Shown in pieces: positions 23,910 to 32,262 of a stretch of DNA of 64,000 bases. Numbering within the stretch: position 1 is the first letter of the stretch; each line of letters starts with the position of its first letter. The DNA is from Candidatus Culexmicrobium cathedralense (GTDB lineage: Archaea > Thermoproteota > Methanomethylicia > Culexarchaeales > Culexmicrobiaceae). Location of the stretch: the NCBI GenBank assembly GCA_025061115.1, contig JANZKC010000001.1, positions 448,001 to 512,000 on the forward strand, given 5' to 3'. The notes beneath the pieces were generated by a model, which worked only from the letters and a program-made list of their open reading frames with translations, ran no database searches and was not told the DNA's origin. A program made the position numbers and the translations under genes.

Positions 23910-25208
23910 GTGGTTCCACCGCTTCATGGGGGAACCTCAACAATGAAAGTTGAGATGCCCTTCAACGTTATGAAAGAGAACATTACAGTAGAGCTCCCAG
24001 ACGATCAACACGTACAAGTAATAACGCCCAAGCCAATTGAAGCCAGAAGCATTGAAAGCGAAGTGAAAAGAGCATTAAGAAACAGCTACTTTAAAAGAAT
24101 CATGAAAAAAGTGGGTGAGGGCAGTAGAGTAGCAATACTCATAGATGACCACACCCGCCCAACTCCAACCAAGGAAGTTCTACCAATAATCATCAATGAA
24201 ATTGAAGCTAGAGGAGGAAGCGTCGAAGTAATTTATGCAAAAGGAACCCACGACCCACCACCTCCACACTTCCTAGAGAAGAAGGTAAGCCGGGAAATAC
24301 TGGAAAAATACAGCTTCACCATGCACGACGCATATCACGGCGACTACACTTTCAAAGGCCTAACCAGCCTTGGAACGCCAGTGTGGATAAACAGCTTAGC
24401 TGCAAACGCGGATATAAGGATAGGCATAGGATCAATATTTCCCTCCGAAGTCGCAGGATTTACCGGCGGCTGCAAAATTCTCCTCCCAGGAATATCATCG
24501 TACTTAACAATAAATAGGAATCACTCCCTCTTCATATCCCCAAAAGCAAAAATCGGAAGCATGACTGAAAACCCAGTACGCAAAGACATCGACGAAGCAG
24601 GGTTAATCGGCGAATTAAATGCGATAATAAACTTCGTAATGACGGCAGACGGAAGAGTCGTAAAGGCATTCTCAGGACATCCCATCAAAGCCCATCGATC
24701 CGGAGTAAAACTGTGCAGAGAAATATATGAGAGGAAAATCGAATGCAAAGCAGATCTCATAATTATCTCCCCTGGTGGAACCGAAGACATAGACTTTGTC
24801 CAGGCGGTTAAAGCAATATTCATGGCAGACGCAATATGCAAAGATGGAGGAACAATAATTCTCGTGGCAGCATGTCCGCTCGGCACCCAATGGCCCGAGC
24901 TGGAAGAGTACCTCCATGAAGTGCGCAGCAAGAACAAGAGCCGCGAGCAAATTTTAAAGGACATCATAAGCGGAAAAATTGAAAGCATCATGGGCGCAAT
25001 ACTTTACAAAAAATATCACCTAATAATTGAAAAAAGAAAGAAGATACTCGTATACACTAAAGGCCTAAACCGCGAGCAGATAAGCAACCTAGGATTCGAA
25101 CCAATAGAAGACCTACAAAGCACCGTGAATGAAGAAGTAAAAAATAAGCGCAGAATTTTAGTTCTACCTTATGGTGCCTACAATTGGGTTAAAGTGGAGG
25201 GAGATTAA
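23910..25208 (+). CDS. LarA-family nickel-pincer racemase/epimerase (probable start ATG 23943)
   Basis: DDHTRPTP, GTH, G.TSLGTPV, AGFTGGCKILLPG, NH, GGTIILVAACP.G. Confidence 0.85.
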   Translation: MVPPLHGGTSTMKVEMPFNVMKENITVELPDDQHVQVITPKPIEARSIESEVKRALRNSYFKRIMKKVGEGSRVAILIDDHTRPTPTKEVLPIIINEIEARGGSVEVIYAKGTHDPPPPHFLEKKVSREILEKYSFTMHDAYHGDYTFKGLTSLGTPVWINSLAANADIRIGIGSIFPSEVAGFTGGCKILLPGISSYLTINRNHSLFISPKAKIGSMTENPVRKDIDEAGLIGELNAIINFVMTADGRVVKAFSGHPIKAHRSGVKLCREIYERKIECKADLIIISPGGTEDIDFVQAVKAIFMADAICKDGGTIILVAACPLGTQWPELEEYLHEVRSKNKSREQILKDIISGKIESIMGAILYKKYHLIIEKRKKILVYTKGLNREQISNLGFEPIEDLQSTVNEEVKNKRRILVLPYGAYNWVKVEGD

Positions 25209-26557
25209 TGGCAGTTACAATTAGGGAAGTAGGATTCATAAGAGTTGGAGCTCACAGCCACATCAAAGGATTAGGGCTGAAAAACGGAAAAGCACTCATG
25301 AAAGCAGATGGAATGGTTGGACAAATAGAAGCTAGAGAAGCAGCGGGAATAATCGTCGAACTAATAAAACAAGGCAAAATGGCGGGAAGAGGCATACTGC
25401 TAGCTGGCCCCCCAGGCACTGGAAAAACCGCAATTGCAGTTGCAATAGCAAAAGAATTGGGTGAAGACGTGCCATTCATAGCAATTTCCGGCTCAGAAAT
25501 ATATTCAAGCGAGCTAAAAAAGACGGAAGTGCTGATGCAAGCCATGAGAAAAGCAATAGGAGTTAGAATTCATGAATTCAGAAAGGTCTATGAAGGAATG
25601 GTATCAGACCTAGACCTAAAAATGACAAGACACCCATACAACCCATATCAGCAAATACCTGAAAGCGCCAAACTAAAACTAAAAACCAAAAGTGAAGAAA
25701 AAACATTAACAGTAGGATCATCAATAGCAATGGAACTAATATCCCGCGGAATAAGCGTTGGAGACGTAATATGGATCGACGCAGAAACAGGCAGGGTAAC
25801 CAAGCTTGGAAAATGCAAGGACTATGAAGGCCCAAAATACGACATTGAGGCAGAAGCACAAGTATCAATGCCGGAAGGCGCAGTCCTCAAGGAAAAGGAG
25901 TTCGTCTACACAATTACTCTCCACGACCTAGATGTGAGGATGCACAGCAGGTCAGGGGGAATATTCAGCCTACTATTCGGAGGAAGAGAAGAAAAGGAGA
26001 TACCGCCAGACGTAAGGCAGGAAGTAGACAACCTAGTTAAAAAGTGGGTTGATGAAGGAAGAGCAGAAATAATTCCAGGAGTCATGTTCATAGATGAAGC
26101 TTCAGCCCTAGACATTGAAGCATTCTCATTCCTAGGCAGAGCAATGGAAGGCGAGCTAGCGCCAATAATAATACTAGCAACCAACAGAGGAATAACCAAA
26201 ATAAGAGGAACAGACATAAAATCCCCCCACGGCATACCGTTGGACATACTCGACAGGTTGATGATAATAACGACAAGAAAGTACGAAGCTGAAGAAATCA
26301 GAGAAATACTCAAGATAAGAGCCAGCGAAGAAGGAGTTAAGCTAAGTGAAAAAGCCCTGGAAGAGCTAACTAAAATAGGAGAAGAAACCTCCCTAAGATA
26401 CGTCGTCCAAATGCTCACACCCGCCCAAATAGTAGCCCGAAGAAATAGAAGAGAAGAAGTGCTGCCTGAAGATGTGGAGGAAGTTAGAAAACTATTTGCT
26501 GACGTTAAGCAATCAACAAAATACTTGAAGGAGCACGAGGAAGAGATGCTGAAGTAG
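25208..26557 (+). CDS. TIP49/RuvB-like AAA+ ATPase
   Basis: AHSHIKGLGL, GPPGTGKT, GSEIYS.ELKKTE, FIDE, ATNRG, HGIPLDILDRL. Confidence 0.95.
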   Translation: MAVTIREVGFIRVGAHSHIKGLGLKNGKALMKADGMVGQIEAREAAGIIVELIKQGKMAGRGILLAGPPGTGKTAIAVAIAKELGEDVPFIAISGSEIYSSELKKTEVLMQAMRKAIGVRIHEFRKVYEGMVSDLDLKMTRHPYNPYQQIPESAKLKLKTKSEEKTLTVGSSIAMELISRGISVGDVIWIDAETGRVTKLGKCKDYEGPKYDIEAEAQVSMPEGAVLKEKEFVYTITLHDLDVRMHSRSGGIFSLLFGGREEKEIPPDVRQEVDNLVKKWVDEGRAEIIPGVMFIDEASALDIEAFSFLGRAMEGELAPIIILATNRGITKIRGTDIKSPHGIPLDILDRLMIITTRKYEAEEIREILKIRASEEGVKLSEKALEELTKIGEETSLRYVVQMLTPAQIVARRNRREEVLPEDVEEVRKLFADVKQSTKYLKEHEEEMLK

Positions 26558-26562
26558 GAGGA

Positions 26563-27117
26563 ATGAAAATAAACTTCAGTGGGAAACCGATAACAATAAA
26601 ATCCAAAACCATACCAGAAGCCATTCTGAAAACCCTAAAAATAGCGATGAAGGCAATTAAAAGCGGAACCTCAAAGCTAAGCAACTTACTAATAGAGGTT
26701 AGAAATCCAGAAGTACGCCCATTAAGCTGCATTCAATTAAACATCACCGATGAAGAAATAATAGAAGAATACTACAGGGCAGTCACGGAGAAAAGCAGTG
26801 CGAAAAACGCGCTGACCTCAGCAATCTCAACGCTCAAAGTAGGAGAAGAGGCAGAAATACCTTTAAATGCACTTAGCAAAGCAACTGGATTAATAACATT
26901 AAGAATCCAAGAAACTTCAATACAACCAACAATAATAATACTCAACTGCAAATCGCTAAAACAACTAAACATGCAACTAGGAATCACACAAATACTGCAA
27001 GAAGACTTGTCAATATCATTAGGGCTCGAACCAAGCTTCATAGTATCTTTTCTACCTACACTCAAACTAAGCATCCATGAAATTCGGCAAACATCATCCA
27101 AACGCAGTGAAAGCTAG
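26563..27117 (+). CDS. Hypothetical protein, possibly a degenerate thymidylate synthase-like fold
   Basis: I.SKTIPEA...NLLIEVRNP start and N...G...LQE.L...LGLE end echo archaeal ThyA; no PC or RS.D motif. Confidence 0.45.
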   Translation: MKINFSGKPITIKSKTIPEAILKTLKIAMKAIKSGTSKLSNLLIEVRNPEVRPLSCIQLNITDEEIIEEYYRAVTEKSSAKNALTSAISTLKVGEEAEIPLNALSKATGLITLRIQETSIQPTIIILNCKSLKQLNMQLGITQILQEDLSISLGLEPSFIVSFLPTLKLSIHEIRQTSSKRSES

Positions 27118-28338
27118 TCCAACAACGCTAATAACTGAAATGATTATCGTTATAAACCAGCAAAAAGCCTTCACCAAGCCGGCGTGAACATCCTCTGGAA
27201 AACGAATGCCGGTGAAGAGCAGTGAAAGGAAGATCAGTGGAATAGGCGAGAGCACGCATGTGAGAGCAGAAGCATTAATCACCAATTTAAGCGGAGAAGC
27301 GCCAAACGCGAGAAATAGAGGTGCTATTAAAAAGCTTACAGAAGCAAGAATAATTTTCCAGCCAGACAAAATTGCAGCTCTAATTCGAAGCACTTCAGCC
27401 AAGTCATCAACAAGCTCATCTAATATTTTAAGATTGGATATCGCGGCAACAGCAGATCGCAAAAATGATGAAGCCACAGCTCCAAAGGCAAGCATATATA
27501 CTACCACGTCGCCTAAAGCAGGCTTCAAAGCGAGGATCGCCTCCTCAACACTATCAATAACCAAACCTTTAGGATAAAGCTGGGAGGCACATGTAATTAA
27601 TATTGAGGCGTCAACCAAAATACCCATAAACACGCCCACCATCATCCCAACAAATTCCAGCGTCAACACGCCATAGCCCTTAGGCTTCTTAGAAGCCTCC
27701 GAAGCTTCAAACAATAGGGAATCCCCTGAAATTTGAGTTCCAATAATAGCCATGAGAGTAAGCATGAAGTCCCTTGAAGGGTGAAACTCAACCGACAAGA
27801 AGCCCCTTACGAGGCCCCCTAATGGGGGACTAGAAAGAATTGCAGCAGGCACGCACACTATCATTATAAAACTAGTCATCACCAAGACGTTTTTAATAGT
27901 TTGAGAATAACTCTTAACTGAAAGAACGCAGATTAGAAGTGAAAGTAAAGGAGCCCACAAAGTTATAGAAAACCCGACAATGGATGATAAAAGCGAGGAG
28001 CTGCCAGCAATTTCAGCAGTAATTATAGCTACATTAGCTGATGAAATCAGGAAAGCAACAAAAACAGCAACAAAATGGCCATACCGCATCTTAATATTAG
28101 AGAGAAAACCGCACTTGGTAGCCAAACCTACTTGAGCAGTAATCTGCAATATGAAAAATGAGAAGAAGAACAGAAGAACCAAAGACCATAAAAGTGAGAA
28201 GCCATAAGCTGACCCAGCATACCCAAAAGTAGCCAAATCCACGATGCCCACACAAGACACGCCGGCAATCAATGCCGGCACAATTAACCTCAAATAATTA
28301 GCAGAGTCGGAGGGCTCCGTCCCGCACAAAAAAATCAC
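27094..28338 (-). CDS. NRAMP-family-like transporter, divergent
   Basis: About 11 TM; AT...AGS.YGFSLLW, VGLAT..G, TAEIAG, A..AL.P.LG; DPGN-type motif absent. Confidence 0.7.
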   Translation of the reverse strand: MIFLCGTEPSDSANYLRLIVPALIAGVSCVGIVDLATFGYAGSAYGFSLLWSLVLLFFFSFFILQITAQVGLATKCGFLSNIKMRYGHFVAVFVAFLISSANVAIITAEIAGSSSLLSSIVGFSITLWAPLLSLLICVLSVKSYSQTIKNVLVMTSFIMIVCVPAAILSSPPLGGLVRGFLSVEFHPSRDFMLTLMAIIGTQISGDSLLFEASEASKKPKGYGVLTLEFVGMMVGVFMGILVDASILITCASQLYPKGLVIDSVEEAILALKPALGDVVVYMLAFGAVASSFLRSAVAAISNLKILDELVDDLAEVLRIRAAILSGWKIILASVSFLIAPLFLAFGASPLKLVINASALTCVLSPIPLIFLSLLFTGIRFPEDVHAGLVKAFCWFITIIISVISVVGLAFTAFG

Positions 28339-28340
28339 CT

Positions 28341-28643
28341 CTACTGCTGCTTTTTATCTGAGAAAAGCTTTATCAGCGCATCTTCATCTATCACGAGATT
28401 CAAGTAAATTCTCCCCTCCCTAACCGCTACATTTTCAACTCTGAAGTTTACGTGGAGATCATCCGCAGCAAGATTACGCGTTGAAATCAGCTGCTTCGAC
28501 TTCTCCGACCCATCACTACTCGAAATCACTTTAACTGCATACCTCTTCGCAAGCCTTCTAGCTATAGCGTAGTTATAGGCTACTGGGAAAGCGCCTGCGA
28601 CCAGGTATGTCAATAAGAGAGCTGCATCCTCCAGCAATTCCAT
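28341..28643 (-). CDS. Small hypothetical protein with N-terminal hydrophobic helix (ORF track start 28664; ATG 28643 preferred)
   Basis: GGTG directly before ATG 28643; stop lies 2 nt before the NRAMP-like start. Confidence 0.6.
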   Translation of the reverse strand: MELLEDAALLLTYLVAGAFPVAYNYAIARRLAKRYAVKVISSSDGSEKSKQLISTRNLAADDLHVNFRVENVAVREGRIYLNLVIDEDALIKLFSDKKQQ

Positions 28644-28672
28644 CACCAAGTTAATTTTATGCACTGGAAAGC

Positions 28673-28741
28673 TATTGCCTTTATGAATTTACTTTTGTAA
28701 ATCAACGCAGAAGAATACGGAGCGAATACACCTTGAAACTG
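28673..28741 (-). repeat. Copy A of ~70-bp inverted repeat / duplicated promoter module
   Basis: Reverse complement aligns to 30830-30899 at 58/70 positions, including 30 bp identical (ATTTACAAAAGTAAATTCATAAAGGCAATA; 28673-28702). Confidence 0.9.
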
Positions 28742-28815
28742 CAAGCGAAGTCATACGCGTATAACCTAACTTAAATAAGGAAAATAAGTGAAAATAGCTA
28801 GCGAGTGGTGAAACG

Positions 28816-30027
28816 GTGAGGAAAGCCCGCCTTCACTTCATGCTAATAACAATTTTAATTGTAATTTTAACAGCCAACTCGACAGTCGCCCTTACAGCTA
28901 AATCAATCTCTCAAAAATATGTCGTCGGCTACGAAATAACAATCGTAAATGAAGGAAACAAAACCTACCCACTAGAAGACATGGAAAAATTGACTTTAAT
29001 ACCAGAAGACAATCATCAAAAGCTGATTTCAGTCACGCTTAAAATCAATGGAAATGAAGTAGACTGGAAATTCGCGGGCATTAACGATGAAGGAAACTGG
29101 GAGATAGAAATATTAAATCCACCGGAAAACCTACCACCAAACTCACGAATAAGCCTAGAAACTCAATTCGAAGTTGAAATTTCGCAGCTAAGCCCTCCAA
29201 CCATAAGCGTGGAAGAATCTGGAGACATCAGCGACATCCCTCAAAACCTAGTAAGGCAGTACTGCAAAATGGAGGGGATCTGGGCCAAAAGCGCGAATGC
29301 GAGCTTACTAGCCAACAGGCTGAAGGGAAATGAAACAAATATTTTGAAAATAGTATTCAAATTCATCAAGTGGATTGAAAACAACATCAAATACCCAATG
29401 GGATTAACCCCCAAGTTACCAACATATCCAGACGAAACAATAGCCTTAGGAGAGGGAGACTGCGATGACCAAGCAAATCTACTAGTTGCAATGTGCAGAT
29501 CAATAGGAATACCAGCGTACACTCAACTATCATTCCTATACATGAAGGGAGAGGAGCCGGTGCGAAGAACCCTTCTAGAAGGACGCTTAACAATTGAAGC
29601 AGTAAACGTCGCTGGACATGGATGGGCAGTTATCTACGTCCCGCCATGGGGATGGATACCGGTGGACATGACGTACTTTGAGGGCGAAAAGCTGGTTTCA
29701 GGGAGGATAATTAGCATAAATATAGAGGATCACATACGGGGAGCAGCATTATTCCACGTCGCAGCCCTAGTAACAGAAAACATCGTGAAGAGCGATTACA
29801 TTAAAGAACTCAAAGAATGGATGAGCGAACTCAAAGAGTACAATTTAAAATGGAGCGAAAAATATTACATGCTAATTAAGGAGCCCAAAAAACCTAGAGA
29901 TGGCATGATAATTGCATCAGCAATCGGCCTCATAGCTCTAACATCAGCAACCTTCGCAGTGTACTTTTACGTGAAGAAAAGAAGAACAACAAGCTTAGCG
30001 CCAACAACAATTAATAAGGTGAATTAG
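28816..30027 (+). CDS. Secreted, membrane-anchored transglutaminase-like (Cys-His-Asp) protein
   Basis: Signal peptide; GDCDDQANLLVAMCRSIGIPA, GHGW, WIPVD; C-terminal TM followed by KKRR. Confidence 0.85.
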   Translation: MRKARLHFMLITILIVILTANSTVALTAKSISQKYVVGYEITIVNEGNKTYPLEDMEKLTLIPEDNHQKLISVTLKINGNEVDWKFAGINDEGNWEIEILNPPENLPPNSRISLETQFEVEISQLSPPTISVEESGDISDIPQNLVRQYCKMEGIWAKSANASLLANRLKGNETNILKIVFKFIKWIENNIKYPMGLTPKLPTYPDETIALGEGDCDDQANLLVAMCRSIGIPAYTQLSFLYMKGEEPVRRTLLEGRLTIEAVNVAGHGWAVIYVPPWGWIPVDMTYFEGEKLVSGRIISINIEDHIRGAALFHVAALVTENIVKSDYIKELKEWMSELKEYNLKWSEKYYMLIKEPKKPRDGMIIASAIGLIALTSATFAVYFYVKKRRTTSLAPTTINKVN

Positions 30028-30043
30028 GTCAAAATAATACGGT

Positions 30044-30571
30044 GTGACCATGGATTTATTCGAAGCTATTAAAGGCAGGAGGAGCATTAGGAGATTCGTA
30101 AGAAAAGAGGTGCCGGAAGAGCATGTAAAACGAATTTTAGAAGCAGCCATCTGGGCGCCCTCAGCAGGTAATCTTCAACCCTGGGAGTTCATCATCATAA
30201 GAGATGAAAAAGTGAAGACTGAAATTGCAAGAGCAGCCCTAGGTCAAATGTGGATCACAGAAGCACCCGTAGTAGTTGTTGTATGCGCAAATGAGCTTAG
30301 AAGCGCAAGACACTACGGGGAAAGAGGAAGAAGCCTATACTGCATCCAAGATACGGCAGCAGCCACTCAAAACATGCTATTAGCAGCACACGCACTTGGC
30401 TATGGAACTTGCTGGGTTGGAGCATTCCTGGAGAATGAAGTTAAGCAAGTACTAAATCTACCAGAACACGTCCGCCCAGTAGCAATCATACCCATAGGAG
30501 TCCCAGGAGAGAAGCCAGCTCCAAGACCTAGAATTCCACTCAACCAAGTAGTACACTACGAAAAGTACTAG
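30044..30571 (+). CDS. Nitroreductase family protein
   Basis: RRSIRRF, APSAGNLQPWEF, QNMLLAAHALGYGTCWVG. Confidence 0.93.
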   Translation: MTMDLFEAIKGRRSIRRFVRKEVPEEHVKRILEAAIWAPSAGNLQPWEFIIIRDEKVKTEIARAALGQMWITEAPVVVVVCANELRSARHYGERGRSLYCIQDTAAATQNMLLAAHALGYGTCWVGAFLENEVKQVLNLPEHVRPVAIIPIGVPGEKPAPRPRIPLNQVVHYEKY

Positions 30572-30584
30572 ACTACTCACTTGC

Positions 30585-30800
30585 TAGAGACCTGGAGCAC
30601 TATGGTAACTATGGAAACTTTGTGTTCATAAACTCGAGAACTGAATTAATTTCGGAAGTCATCATGCATTCGCTGAGGATGGCAAACCCTTAACTTGCAA
30701 CCTGTGATGCGCGGGGATGCAGTTCTCAATGGACCCCCAACAAATGAAGGAATGTTACAGGAAAGCCCGTGAAAGCTATCAAAGTTCCACAGTATCCAAA
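30585..30800 (+). pseudogene. Possible decayed remnant of a 4Fe-4S dicluster protein gene
   Basis: Fragments in shifting frames: GALW/YGNFVFIN, FG-VIM, EDGKPLTCNL*C, DPQ..EC, PVKAIK. Confidence 0.3.
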
Positions 30801-30829
30801 AGATAAAACGCATGCAACATGCCATCGAC

Positions 30830-30899
30830 CAGTATTCGAAGCGTATTCGCCCAGTATTCTCCCAAGATAATTTACAAAAGTAAATTCATAAAGGCAATA
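30830..30899 (+). repeat. Copy B of ~70-bp inverted repeat / duplicated promoter module
   Basis: GTATTC at 30832, 30843 and 30854 (11-bp period); palindrome AATTTAC-AAAA-GTAAATT; TTCATAAA at 30885-30892; 30 bp identical to copy A. Confidence 0.9.
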
Positions 30900-30933
30900 C
30901 TTCTAAAGCACATTAGAATTAAAAGGTAAAAGC

Positions 30934-32262
30934 ATGCAAACAAGTAGCGCAGCTGAAACCAAAACACTCACAAGTAAAGTCAACATCCACAAAAAATTAG
31001 CAAGAAAGGTAGTAGGAGACATAGGAAATTGGAGAGAAATGGCCATTTTCACCTATGAAAACACAATACTAAAGAAATTCAGAGTAATTCCAGAAATACT
31101 GGCACTAGCAATAGCACACGAAGCCTGGAGACAGCGAAAAACGCGCTCGATAGTAATACTAAATACAAATCACATTGACCCAGACGTAGCTCTAGAGATT
31201 ATCGATGAATTTGAAAGCCCTCCATCAATATTCGAATTCGGAATTGAAAACATCAGCTTCAATACTCTTCCCAGAATTAAAATAAGCTTCGAAAGGCTGA
31301 AAACGCGAGGAGAAATTCTTGGAAAAATAATTAAAGGCATTGCCCCCGAAAAAAACCACAAAATCAGCGAACAACAATTCGAAAAAGTGGAGAGCGTAAA
31401 TGAGCTCAGCGAACTCTTAATTAAAACCTTAAAGCCCCCAAGCATTAGCGAGATTCTGGAAGATAAACTTCGTCAAAATAAGAATAAAGGGAAGTTGACG
31501 ACAGTAGCACAAGCAGTAGGAATTATAGGAGGACTCATTTTCCAGCCGCTGGCAGTAGCTCCACATGGATTAAAGATGGTTCAAGAACTCGTAAAAGCAA
31601 TCCAAAACGGAAAGGAAATGCATTATAAGGACTGGGAAAAAGCAATTGAAAAGGGATTTAGCGCAGAAAAGGTAAAGCAAATAGTAGACCTGAGAGGTAT
31701 GACACCTCTTGTAGAGGGAATAGAGGATAGCGGATGGGCAGTAGTTCTAAACACAACTGCAGAAACCATGTACGAGCCACTATCCCTATACATGACTTGG
31801 AATGCCATAGAAACAGTTTCAAGAGAACTTGGAGAAGCACTTGGAGTCCTAGCTGATGGAGATAGCCTCATACAGATTCCAGCAGCAGGAGAGGTAATTA
31901 GAGAACTAGTGGAGAGTGAAATGAGTATTAGACTAGCATACATATTCAGGTGCAAAGGCAGAAAACACCCTGAAAATATAATGCACATAAAAAAGTACAT
32001 AAGCGATAGAGTCGTCATATTCGACATGCCAACTCAAATGCTAGCAAAGCTGTTTGAAAACGAAAGCGCCACATCAACTGCCATTCTAACCAAAAACCTG
32101 CTAGAGGTAGTCAAAGCAGAAAAGCGCGGAGAAATAGCATTCACCTCAAGAAACTTCGGCTATAAGGGCCGCTGGAAAGTCGAAAAAGTGGCTTTGGAAA
32201 CAGGATTCAAAGCAAGATTGAAGCGAATCATAATAAAGATAATTGAATTACTAAACATTTAA
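30934..32262 (+). CDS. Hypothetical protein (possible inactive HerA/VirB4-like ATPase fold)
   Basis: 442 aa ORF; strand order resembles P-loop ATPases but no Walker A. Confidence 0.6.
   Translation: MQTSSAAETKTLTSKVNIHKKLARKVVGDIGNWREMAIFTYENTILKKFRVIPEILALAIAHEAWRQRKTRSIVILNTNHIDPDVALEIIDEFESPPSIFEFGIENISFNTLPRIKISFERLKTRGEILGKIIKGIAPEKNHKISEQQFEKVESVNELSELLIKTLKPPSISEILEDKLRQNKNKGKLTTVAQAVGIIGGLIFQPLAVAPHGLKMVQELVKAIQNGKEMHYKDWEKAIEKGFSAEKVKQIVDLRGMTPLVEGIEDSGWAVVLNTTAETMYEPLSLYMTWNAIETVSRELGEALGVLADGDSLIQIPAAGEVIRELVESEMSIRLAYIFRCKGRKHPENIMHIKKYISDRVVIFDMPTQMLAKLFENESATSTAILTKNLLEVVKAEKRGEIAFTSRNFGYKGRWKVEKVALETGFKARLKRIIIKIIELLNI

Follow-up and report, generated by a model that had tools for sequence, protein, structure and literature searches.

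The inverted repeat and the genes around it

We describe here two inverted copies of a short sequence module in a 64,000-nucleotide stretch of DNA (hereafter the window) from the hot-vent archaeon Candidatus Culexmicrobium cathedralense (contig JANZKC010000001.1, positions 448,001 to 512,000), whose genome we call G000. Each copy lies in front of an outward-facing transcription unit. Module A (28673..28741, minus strand) precedes an operon with the genes for a small membrane protein (28341..28643, minus strand) and a transporter of 414 aa related to NRAMP/SLC11 (27094..28338, minus strand). Module B (30830..30900, plus strand) precedes a single-gene unit that encodes an orphan protein of 442 aa (30934..32262, plus strand). 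Between the two lie a gene for a transglutaminase-like, membrane-anchored protein (28816-30027, plus strand; PF01841, E 5.7e-16), divergent from module A, and a nitroreductase gene (30044-30571, plus strand; PF00881, E 6.7e-41), which ends upstream of module B. Pfam and the list of open reading frames (ORFs) agree with the earlier description of these flanking and internal genes. We suggest that the two arms are copies of one conserved cis-regulatory module, which would control both outward archaeal promoters and so couple the two units. From the sequence evidence set out below, we consider this reading likely.

A repeat search returned the arms as 28673-28737 and 30835-30899, an inverted repeat of 65 nt with 83% complementarity and 2097 nt between the arms. 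When 28673-28742 was compared as its reverse complement with 30830-30899 without gaps, 54 of 70 positions matched. The 58 matches of the original prediction are reproduced if one 1-nt gap is placed after the first four bases, in the distal part. The reported 30-bp core is identical in both arms, 28673-28702 reversed being equal to 30870-30899. It is found at only two places in the genome (1.98 Mb, 25 contigs), even with up to 6 mismatches allowed. This 30-bp match is the longest exact inverted repeat, against a maximum of 16 bp in 200 dinucleotide shuffles of 27500-32000. The hexamer GTATTC recurs at an exact 11-bp period, as had been noted, at 30832, 30843 and 30854, and on the minus strand at 28729-28724 and 28718-28713 together with a degenerate third copy. 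The pair GTATTC-N5-GTATTC occurs three times genome-wide, always within the two arms, where 0.29 occurrences are expected. Both arms also contain the palindrome ATTTAC-N4-GTAAAT (28687-28702 and 30870-30885) and the TATA-like octamer TTCATAAA, which ends 37 nt before the ATG at 28643 and 41 nt before the ATG at 30934. The mismatches do fall between the motifs: all 11 substitutions proximal to the first box are in spacers, and none is in boxes 2-3, the palindrome or the octamer. The inverted repeat is real, and the earlier observation is confirmed.

In module B, three GTATTC boxes (30832-30837, 30843-30848 and 30854-30859) are followed by an 11-nt spacer, the palindrome TTTAC-AAAA-GTAAA (30871-30884), the TATA-like octamer (30886-30893) and GCAATAC (30894-30900). 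Module A is built in the same way on the minus strand, with boxes that read GAATAC on the plus strand at 28713-28718 and 28724-28729, a degenerate third box at about 28734-28740, the palindrome at 28687-28702 and the octamer at 28680-28687.

An archaeal promoter has an A/T-rich TATA element about 26 nt upstream of the transcription start site (TSS), and a purine-rich B recognition element (BRE) stands before the TATA element. The usual promoter geometry was taken from the regions upstream of 910 crude ORF calls in G000. The Shine-Dalgarno motifs GGTGA and GGAGG peak at -15..-6, which suggests that the mRNAs are leadered. Enrichment is seen for TTTA[AT]A at -50..-30 and, mildly, for GTAAA at -55..-35. 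The 442-aa gene has TTCATAAA at -48..-41 and GTAAA at -54..-50, both inside these genome-wide windows of enrichment; the BRE-like AGTAAA of module B and the octamer together span -55..-41 from the ATG, and AAGGT lies 7 nt before the ATG. This geometry is consistent with the assignment of the octamer as TATA-like and predicts starts near 30916 (plus strand) and 28657 (minus strand). The octamer that follows GTAAA makes a poor TATA box, or is not TATA-like, in several relatives, as would be expected for a factor-dependent promoter. Alternatively, TTTACAWW could itself be the TATA box.

Conservation of the composite site across the order

We compared 12 genomes of the order Culexarchaeales. The module stands before both units in nine of them and before one unit in a tenth, which gives 19 promoters from 10 genomes and 3 families. 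Counted by type, its architecture is also found upstream of the 442-aa orthologues in 9 other genomes and upstream of the orthologous operon in 8. The 19 promoters align without gaps, save for one 1-nt shift, and their common form is [GTATTC]-N5-[GTATTC]-N11-TTTAC-N4-GTAAA. TTTAC is exact in all 19 promoters and GTAAA in 12. The proximal box is within one mismatch of GTATTC in 15/19 and within two mismatches in every promoter. A second box stands one 11-bp step upstream, in direct orientation in 13/19 and inverted (GAATAC) in 6/19, the latter being 442-gene promoters of family f3. Across the aligned promoters the motif columns are invariant, the spacer sequence is free and the N11 spacing is constant. 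A conserved and spacing-constrained composite site is present at two co-located promoters.

A sequence-only profile, R1, was built from 18 sites and searched over all 12 genomes. It recovered its 18 training sites and also the 442-gene promoter of G008, which was outside the training set (E 8.7e-6). The weakest true site scored 26.5 bits, and the best other match 18.8 bits; modules B and A scored 44.0 bits (E 3.6e-11) and 39.4 bits (E 1.1e-9). R1 matches two sites in most genomes and none beyond these promoters, and in G000 the full composite is limited to the two arms. The proposal that the arms are a shared promoter or operator of two outward, uncharacterised units is strongly supported by this phylogenetic footprinting over 19 promoters in 10 genomes.

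The same data bear on the idea that the repeat is a neutral local duplication, or an artefact of assembly, without function. This genome does hold only two copies. However, a duplication would not account for a module that stands at both genes in nine genomes and at one in a tenth, with invariant motifs and free spacers. In addition, the profile recovered a promoter that it had not been trained on, and the arrangement was assembled independently in contig X2, described below. We therefore consider this explanation extremely unlikely. An element that acts at the RNA level, such as a leader hairpin or a small RNA, instead of a DNA operator, is likewise highly improbable. If transcribed, TTTAC-N4-GTAAA could form a 5-bp hairpin. 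However, the alignment gives no sign of compensation, as TTTAC is always exact while GTAAA varies, and no Rfam family reaches its gathering score in the window. The position of the palindrome also argues against an RNA element, since it is upstream of the expected start, judged by the usual distances from TATA to start codon in this genome.

Several observations weigh against our preferred reading of a shared regulatory module. The short pattern GTATTC-N11-TTTAC is unspecific, with 25 matches in the 12 genomes against 34 for a reversed control. The right half of the palindrome has 3 mismatches in the f3 442-gene promoters of G006, G007 and G008, which suggests that a dimeric site is not universal there. 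The operon copy of G005 is degenerate and out of register; it was left out of the alignment and is missed by R1. The genomes are related, and the counts are not independent. Promoter function and the direction of regulation are suggested by position and conservation. Finally, no DNA-binding domain was found in either unit or in the neighbours scanned with Pfam (19 window ORFs).

As for the regulon that had been proposed, the two units share the module, and R1 found 0 further members over the 12 genomes. Scans of G000 with the 30-bp core, the palindrome, the composite and relaxed boxes gave no convincing further target. Palindromes of the type AATAC-N4-GTATT at C3:185512 and C3:196396, on contig C3 of G000, were considered as targets and dropped, being without the module architecture. 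The second of these regions, C3:195645-197364, contains two ORFs separated by a gap in which an AATAC-N4-GTATT palindrome is found, again without the module architecture. The first ORF looks by eye like a serine recombinase, and the second, of 283 aa, has C-terminal repeats that resemble helix-turn-helix motifs.

The two units differ in how widely they are distributed. Within the order, orthologues of the 442-aa protein are present in 10/12 genomes and the NRAMP-related protein in 11/12. A single-protein query for the 442-aa family found no member in 29 other genomes of the class, and a profile query found none in 5 selected distant genomes of families f4 and f8. Among the class families, f1, f2, f3, f4 and f8 have the operon, and none was found in f5, f6, f7 and f9. 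In the five f4/f8 genomes, the order of small ORF and NRAMP-related gene is kept, and the transglutaminase-like gene is divergent from the operon in 5/5. The operon regions from -130 to -1 of these genomes contain 9 forward RTATTY boxes against 0.62 expected, with at least one box at 4/5 loci. Two of the genomes have three boxes at spacings of 11 and 13 bp, and about 28 nt beyond the last of these comes CTTATTAATC, which is a clear TATA box. The palindrome TTTAC-N4-GTAAA is absent from all five of these -130..-1 regions. We infer that the box array may be the old element, present at class level and originally tied to the transporter operon, and that the TTTAC palindrome would be an innovation of the order. 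Being confined to the order, the 442-aa gene could then have acquired the module in the order's ancestor.

These f4/f8 operons (L096, L097, L098, L023 and L099, from G030, G032, G022, G012 and G015) also contain a third gene, which encodes about 255 aa; the three copies scanned belong to DUF72 (PF01904, E 4e-44 to 3e-39). In the window, the operon has no such gene directly downstream.

Outside the motifs, the two copies are more alike in G000 than elsewhere. Their non-motif identity is 0.68, against 0.30-0.51 in 8 other genomes; in comparisons across genomes and promoter types it averages 0.38-0.43, with a maximum of 0.53. Because this elevated identity is unique to the G000 copies, the 30-bp core appears to be a lineage-specific feature. 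It probably reflects recent gene conversion between the inverted copies, laid over an ancient shared architecture. The spacing in front of module B is also particular to this genome. A stretch of 259 nt (30572-30830) separates the nitroreductase stop from module B, where in relatives the module starts roughly 10-40 nt after that stop. Nothing similar to it was found in the rest of the genome or in the loci retrieved for comparison, and its only ORF encodes 59 aa on the minus strand.

An inverted repeat of this kind could also be a pair of recombination sites, between which 2.1 kb of DNA with the transglutaminase-like and nitroreductase genes would flip as a switch. The repeat itself is true, and its 30-bp identical core is long enough for occasional homologous exchange. 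The raised identity of the paralogous copies in G000 (0.68) indicates that the arms did exchange sequence at some time. However, the orientation of the internal genes relative to their flanks is constant in G003, G005, G006 and G009, and the arms persist as promoter modules even where, within a genome, they have little in common apart from the motifs (non-motif identity 0.30-0.51). The 10.9-kb contig X2, from a run of another study, is colinear with the window over 27800-31800, with 20 single-base differences in 4001 nt and none in either arm. Each arm is also spanned by short contigs of the runs X3 and X4, arranged as in the window, and no joints were reported. Contigs drop rare variants, and rare inverted forms could escape this comparison. 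The layout of the arms speaks against a switch as well. The parts from TATA to start codon are at the outer ends and point outward, and both outward genes would keep their promoters upon inversion. Exchange at the core would swap only the box arrays and the internal genes, leaving the outward genes unswitched. As had been remarked earlier, no recombinase was found nearby: Pfam gave no such domain in the 19 window ORFs between 18.2 and 35.1 kb. We reject the invertible segment, which we regard as very improbable, on the fixed orientation across the order, the colinear independent contig and the promoter cores at the outer ends.

The shared module sits in a conserved gene block. It runs from a TIP49 gene through a 184-aa gene, the NRAMP-related gene and the small ORF (both minus strand) to the transglutaminase-like, nitroreductase and 442-aa genes (all plus strand). 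Its internal order and orientation are identical in G003, G005, G006 and G009. In seven genomes (G000, G003, G005, G006, G007, G008 and G009) the 442-aa gene and the NRAMP-related gene are divergent and 2.5-4 kb apart. At one edge of the block, 25208-27117 holds an archaeal TIP49/RuvB-like gene (PF06068, E 1e-144) and, 6 nt later, the 184-aa ORF, which has no Pfam match. This pair is syntenic in G003, G005 and G009. A LarA-like gene with lactate racemase N- and C-terminal domains (23910-25208, E 4e-43) ends at the start of the TIP49 gene.

Products of the two units

The first gene of the operon appears in the ORF list as an ORF of 107 aa, for a protein of about 100 aa. Its start is ATG 28643 or TTG 28637, with GGTGA just upstream. 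The protein has no Pfam match. Read by eye, its sequence has one N-terminal membrane helix, followed by a basic stretch and a tail of about 60 aa, and the orthologues at five loci share an invariant P-x-x-Y-N-Y-x-I-A motif. Throughout the NRAMP-related family (27094-28338 and the orthologues L090-L094), a one-helix protein of about 100 aa is always encoded before the transporter.

The transporter is matched over its full length by the Pfam Nramp profile (PF01566, E 3.2e-35, residues 36-374), yet it falls below the NCBIfam cut-offs. Classical members of SLC11 carry an ion-site aspartate in the DPGN motif of transmembrane helix 1. The best solved relative of the transporter is EleNRMT (PDB 7qia), with E 1.9e-17 against about 1e-4 for classical MntH proteins. 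EleNRMT is described as an NRAMP-related Mg transporter, and its Asp55 is called universally conserved in SLC11 (PMC8806188). In the HMMER alignment the residue of our transporter at this position is Gly, and the column is Gly or Ser in 6/6 orthologues, though the alignment could be off by a few residues, with Asp or Asn 3 positions later. By its sequence, the transporter is a non-canonical SLC11 relative with a non-canonical ion site.

The 442-aa protein has no Pfam match, and its family has no name in Pfam or NCBIfam; 10 distant representatives are also without a Pfam family. The family is tiny, with 35 representatives among 1.84 billion proteins. A word-indexed search returned 2 close proteins only, and a single query against a collection of genome contigs returned no relative. 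The AlphaFold2 model of the protein has a predicted local distance difference test (pLDDT) score of 80 and a predicted template modelling (pTM) score of 0.83. With VIA-align it matches VirB4 (Z 16.4, 287 residues aligned, root-mean-square deviation 4.2), DndH-C (Z 15.0) and HerA (Z 14.7 and 13.8), over residues ~20-424 of the 442. Foldseek of the model against the HerA/VirB4/FtsK clade (4ag5, 7es4, 7f6d and 4d2i) gave E values from 5.6e-5 to 1e-3. Look-alikes in a structure atlas scored 0.77 or less and are uninformative.

The Walker A motif of P-loop ATPases is GxxxxGK[ST]. A search for [AG]xxxxGK[ST] found none in 9/9 members of the 442-aa family and 14/14 distant representatives. In the 442-aa protein, the loop that follows the first core strand reads ILNTNHID; 2/9 members have Asn in place of the Walker-B-like Asp. 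By its model, the product has a P-loop fold of the HerA/VirB4/FtsK type, without Walker A. A complex prediction of the 442-aa protein with the small membrane protein scored 0.00; it was run without controls and counts neither way.

Candidate regulators and comparison with known systems

We propose the following mechanism for the shared module. Two or three GTATTC boxes at 11-bp steps are followed by a fixed 11-nt spacer and the invariant TTTAC, usually as part of a 14-bp palindrome. The right half of the palindrome would double as a BRE-like purine stretch directly before the weak TATA-like octamer. One dedicated, sequence-specific DNA-binding factor, or possibly two, would occupy the boxes and the palindrome. 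This factor could couple the operon of the small membrane protein and the NRAMP-related transporter with the 442-aa protein of HerA/VirB4 fold. The boxes may help to recruit TBP and TFB, leading to activation, and occupancy of the palindrome may block TFB, leading to repression. We propose these two actions because the sites are just upstream of, or overlap, the BRE and TATA with its poor TATA box.

A single protein that binds a core site together with auxiliary half-sites would fit about as well as the two inputs proposed earlier, an activator array plus a separate dimeric regulator: a GTA/TAC core is common to boxes and palindrome, and both orientations of the boxes occur. In its most specific form, a dimeric winged-helix repressor like YtrA would bind TTTAC-N4-GTAAA, spread cooperatively to the GTATTC boxes, silence both units and be released by a ligand. 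The precedent is YtrASa of Sulfolobus acidocaldarius. Its operator, delineated by phylogenetic footprinting, is a 14-bp semi-palindrome with a centre of weak base pairs and extra half-sites, at two loci of membrane proteins (PMC6746942). This operator extends over the TSS, and ytrA, which lies in one of the two target operons, is autoregulated (PMC6746942). The architecture seen here is the same as that described for YtrASa (PMC6746942). The orientation of the second box, direct in 13/19 and inverted in 6/19 promoters, also favors such a protein, and in G009 and G010 the sequence GAATAC-N4-GTATTC repeats the TAC-N4-GTA core of the proximal palindrome. However, neither unit contains a regulator gene, and no GntR match in G000 exceeds the Pfam cut-off; the best match to PF00392 scores 25.8 bits against a cut-off of 27 and is located elsewhere than the regulon. 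Our module is upstream of and over the BRE and TATA, whereas the YtrA site is described as covering the TSS. In addition, the distant relatives keep the boxes without the palindrome, which makes the boxes the primary and older element. We regard a YtrA-like repressor as a possible but rather doubtful explanation.

Other regulators were sought around the genes. Among the flanking ORFs of the f4/f8 loci there is no conserved DNA-binding neighbour, and a single winged-helix match occurs in G030 only. The relaxed motif scans brought up no candidate regulator either. The cryptic archaeal regulator AmzR (10.1101/2025.05.05.652248) was considered and set aside as unrelated, being a PAS-GAF protein. 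A factor without a recognisable DNA-binding domain could read GTATTC either way and couple the non-canonical SLC11 relative with an inactivated HerA/VirB4-like ring protein. The module would then mark an order-wide system of two units that had gone unnoticed, in which the transporter, without the aspartate called universal in its family, works with the one-helix partner. We think this improbable. Such a factor could be one of the regulated proteins itself, for example the 442-aa protein with its conserved N-terminal helix. If true, the two units would form a new sensory or transport module that has a cryptic regulator of its own.

Next to nothing is known of how uncultured hydrothermal archaea regulate their genes, and few archaeal operator motifs have been described outside model species. 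The motif reported here is sharply defined, about 50 bp long with fixed spacing, exactly two targets in most genomes and an evolutionary history that can be traced clearly, and could be used as bait for its regulator. It would also link the functions of two orphan proteins, the non-canonical NRAMP relative and the degenerate HerA-like protein, which gives a first hypothesis for each.

The proposed module can be compared with several known systems. Site-specific invertible switches of the Hin/Gin and Fim type have inverted repeats that bracket a segment of a few kilobases. Our locus resembles them in the inverted repeats that flank a segment (65-nt arms, 83%), but here the promoters are in the arms and face outward, instead of lying inside the segment, and the orientation is fixed. 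The products also have known relatives. The 442-aa product shares the overall RecA-like P-loop fold with the HerA/VirB4/FtsK ATPases, but its family is tiny and lacks both Walker A and a Pfam match. EleNRMT is the closest solved relative of the regulated transporter, which has a full-length Nramp match; the differences are the Gly at the Asp55 position and the one-helix partner gene that always precedes the transporter gene.

In archaea, upstream activating sequences next to the BRE are known for Ptr2 (Methanocaldococcus) and GvpE (the divergent gvp promoters of Halobacterium). These have repeated short boxes immediately upstream of the BRE and a weak TATA, and in gvp two divergent promoters carry related elements. 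Here the box sequences are different, and the second promoter is 2.1 kb away, with no shared intergenic region. A literature search for GTATTC in archaeal promoters returned no paper about an archaeal operator, and a broader search returned none with the hexamer. The YtrASa operator is similar in architecture only, as a two-locus regulon of membrane proteins with a 14-bp core, an A/T-rich centre and half-sites. The sequence motif here is unrelated, and neither unit has a gene for a DNA-binding protein. What we report is a new motif and a putative mini-regulon, and not a new kind of mechanism.

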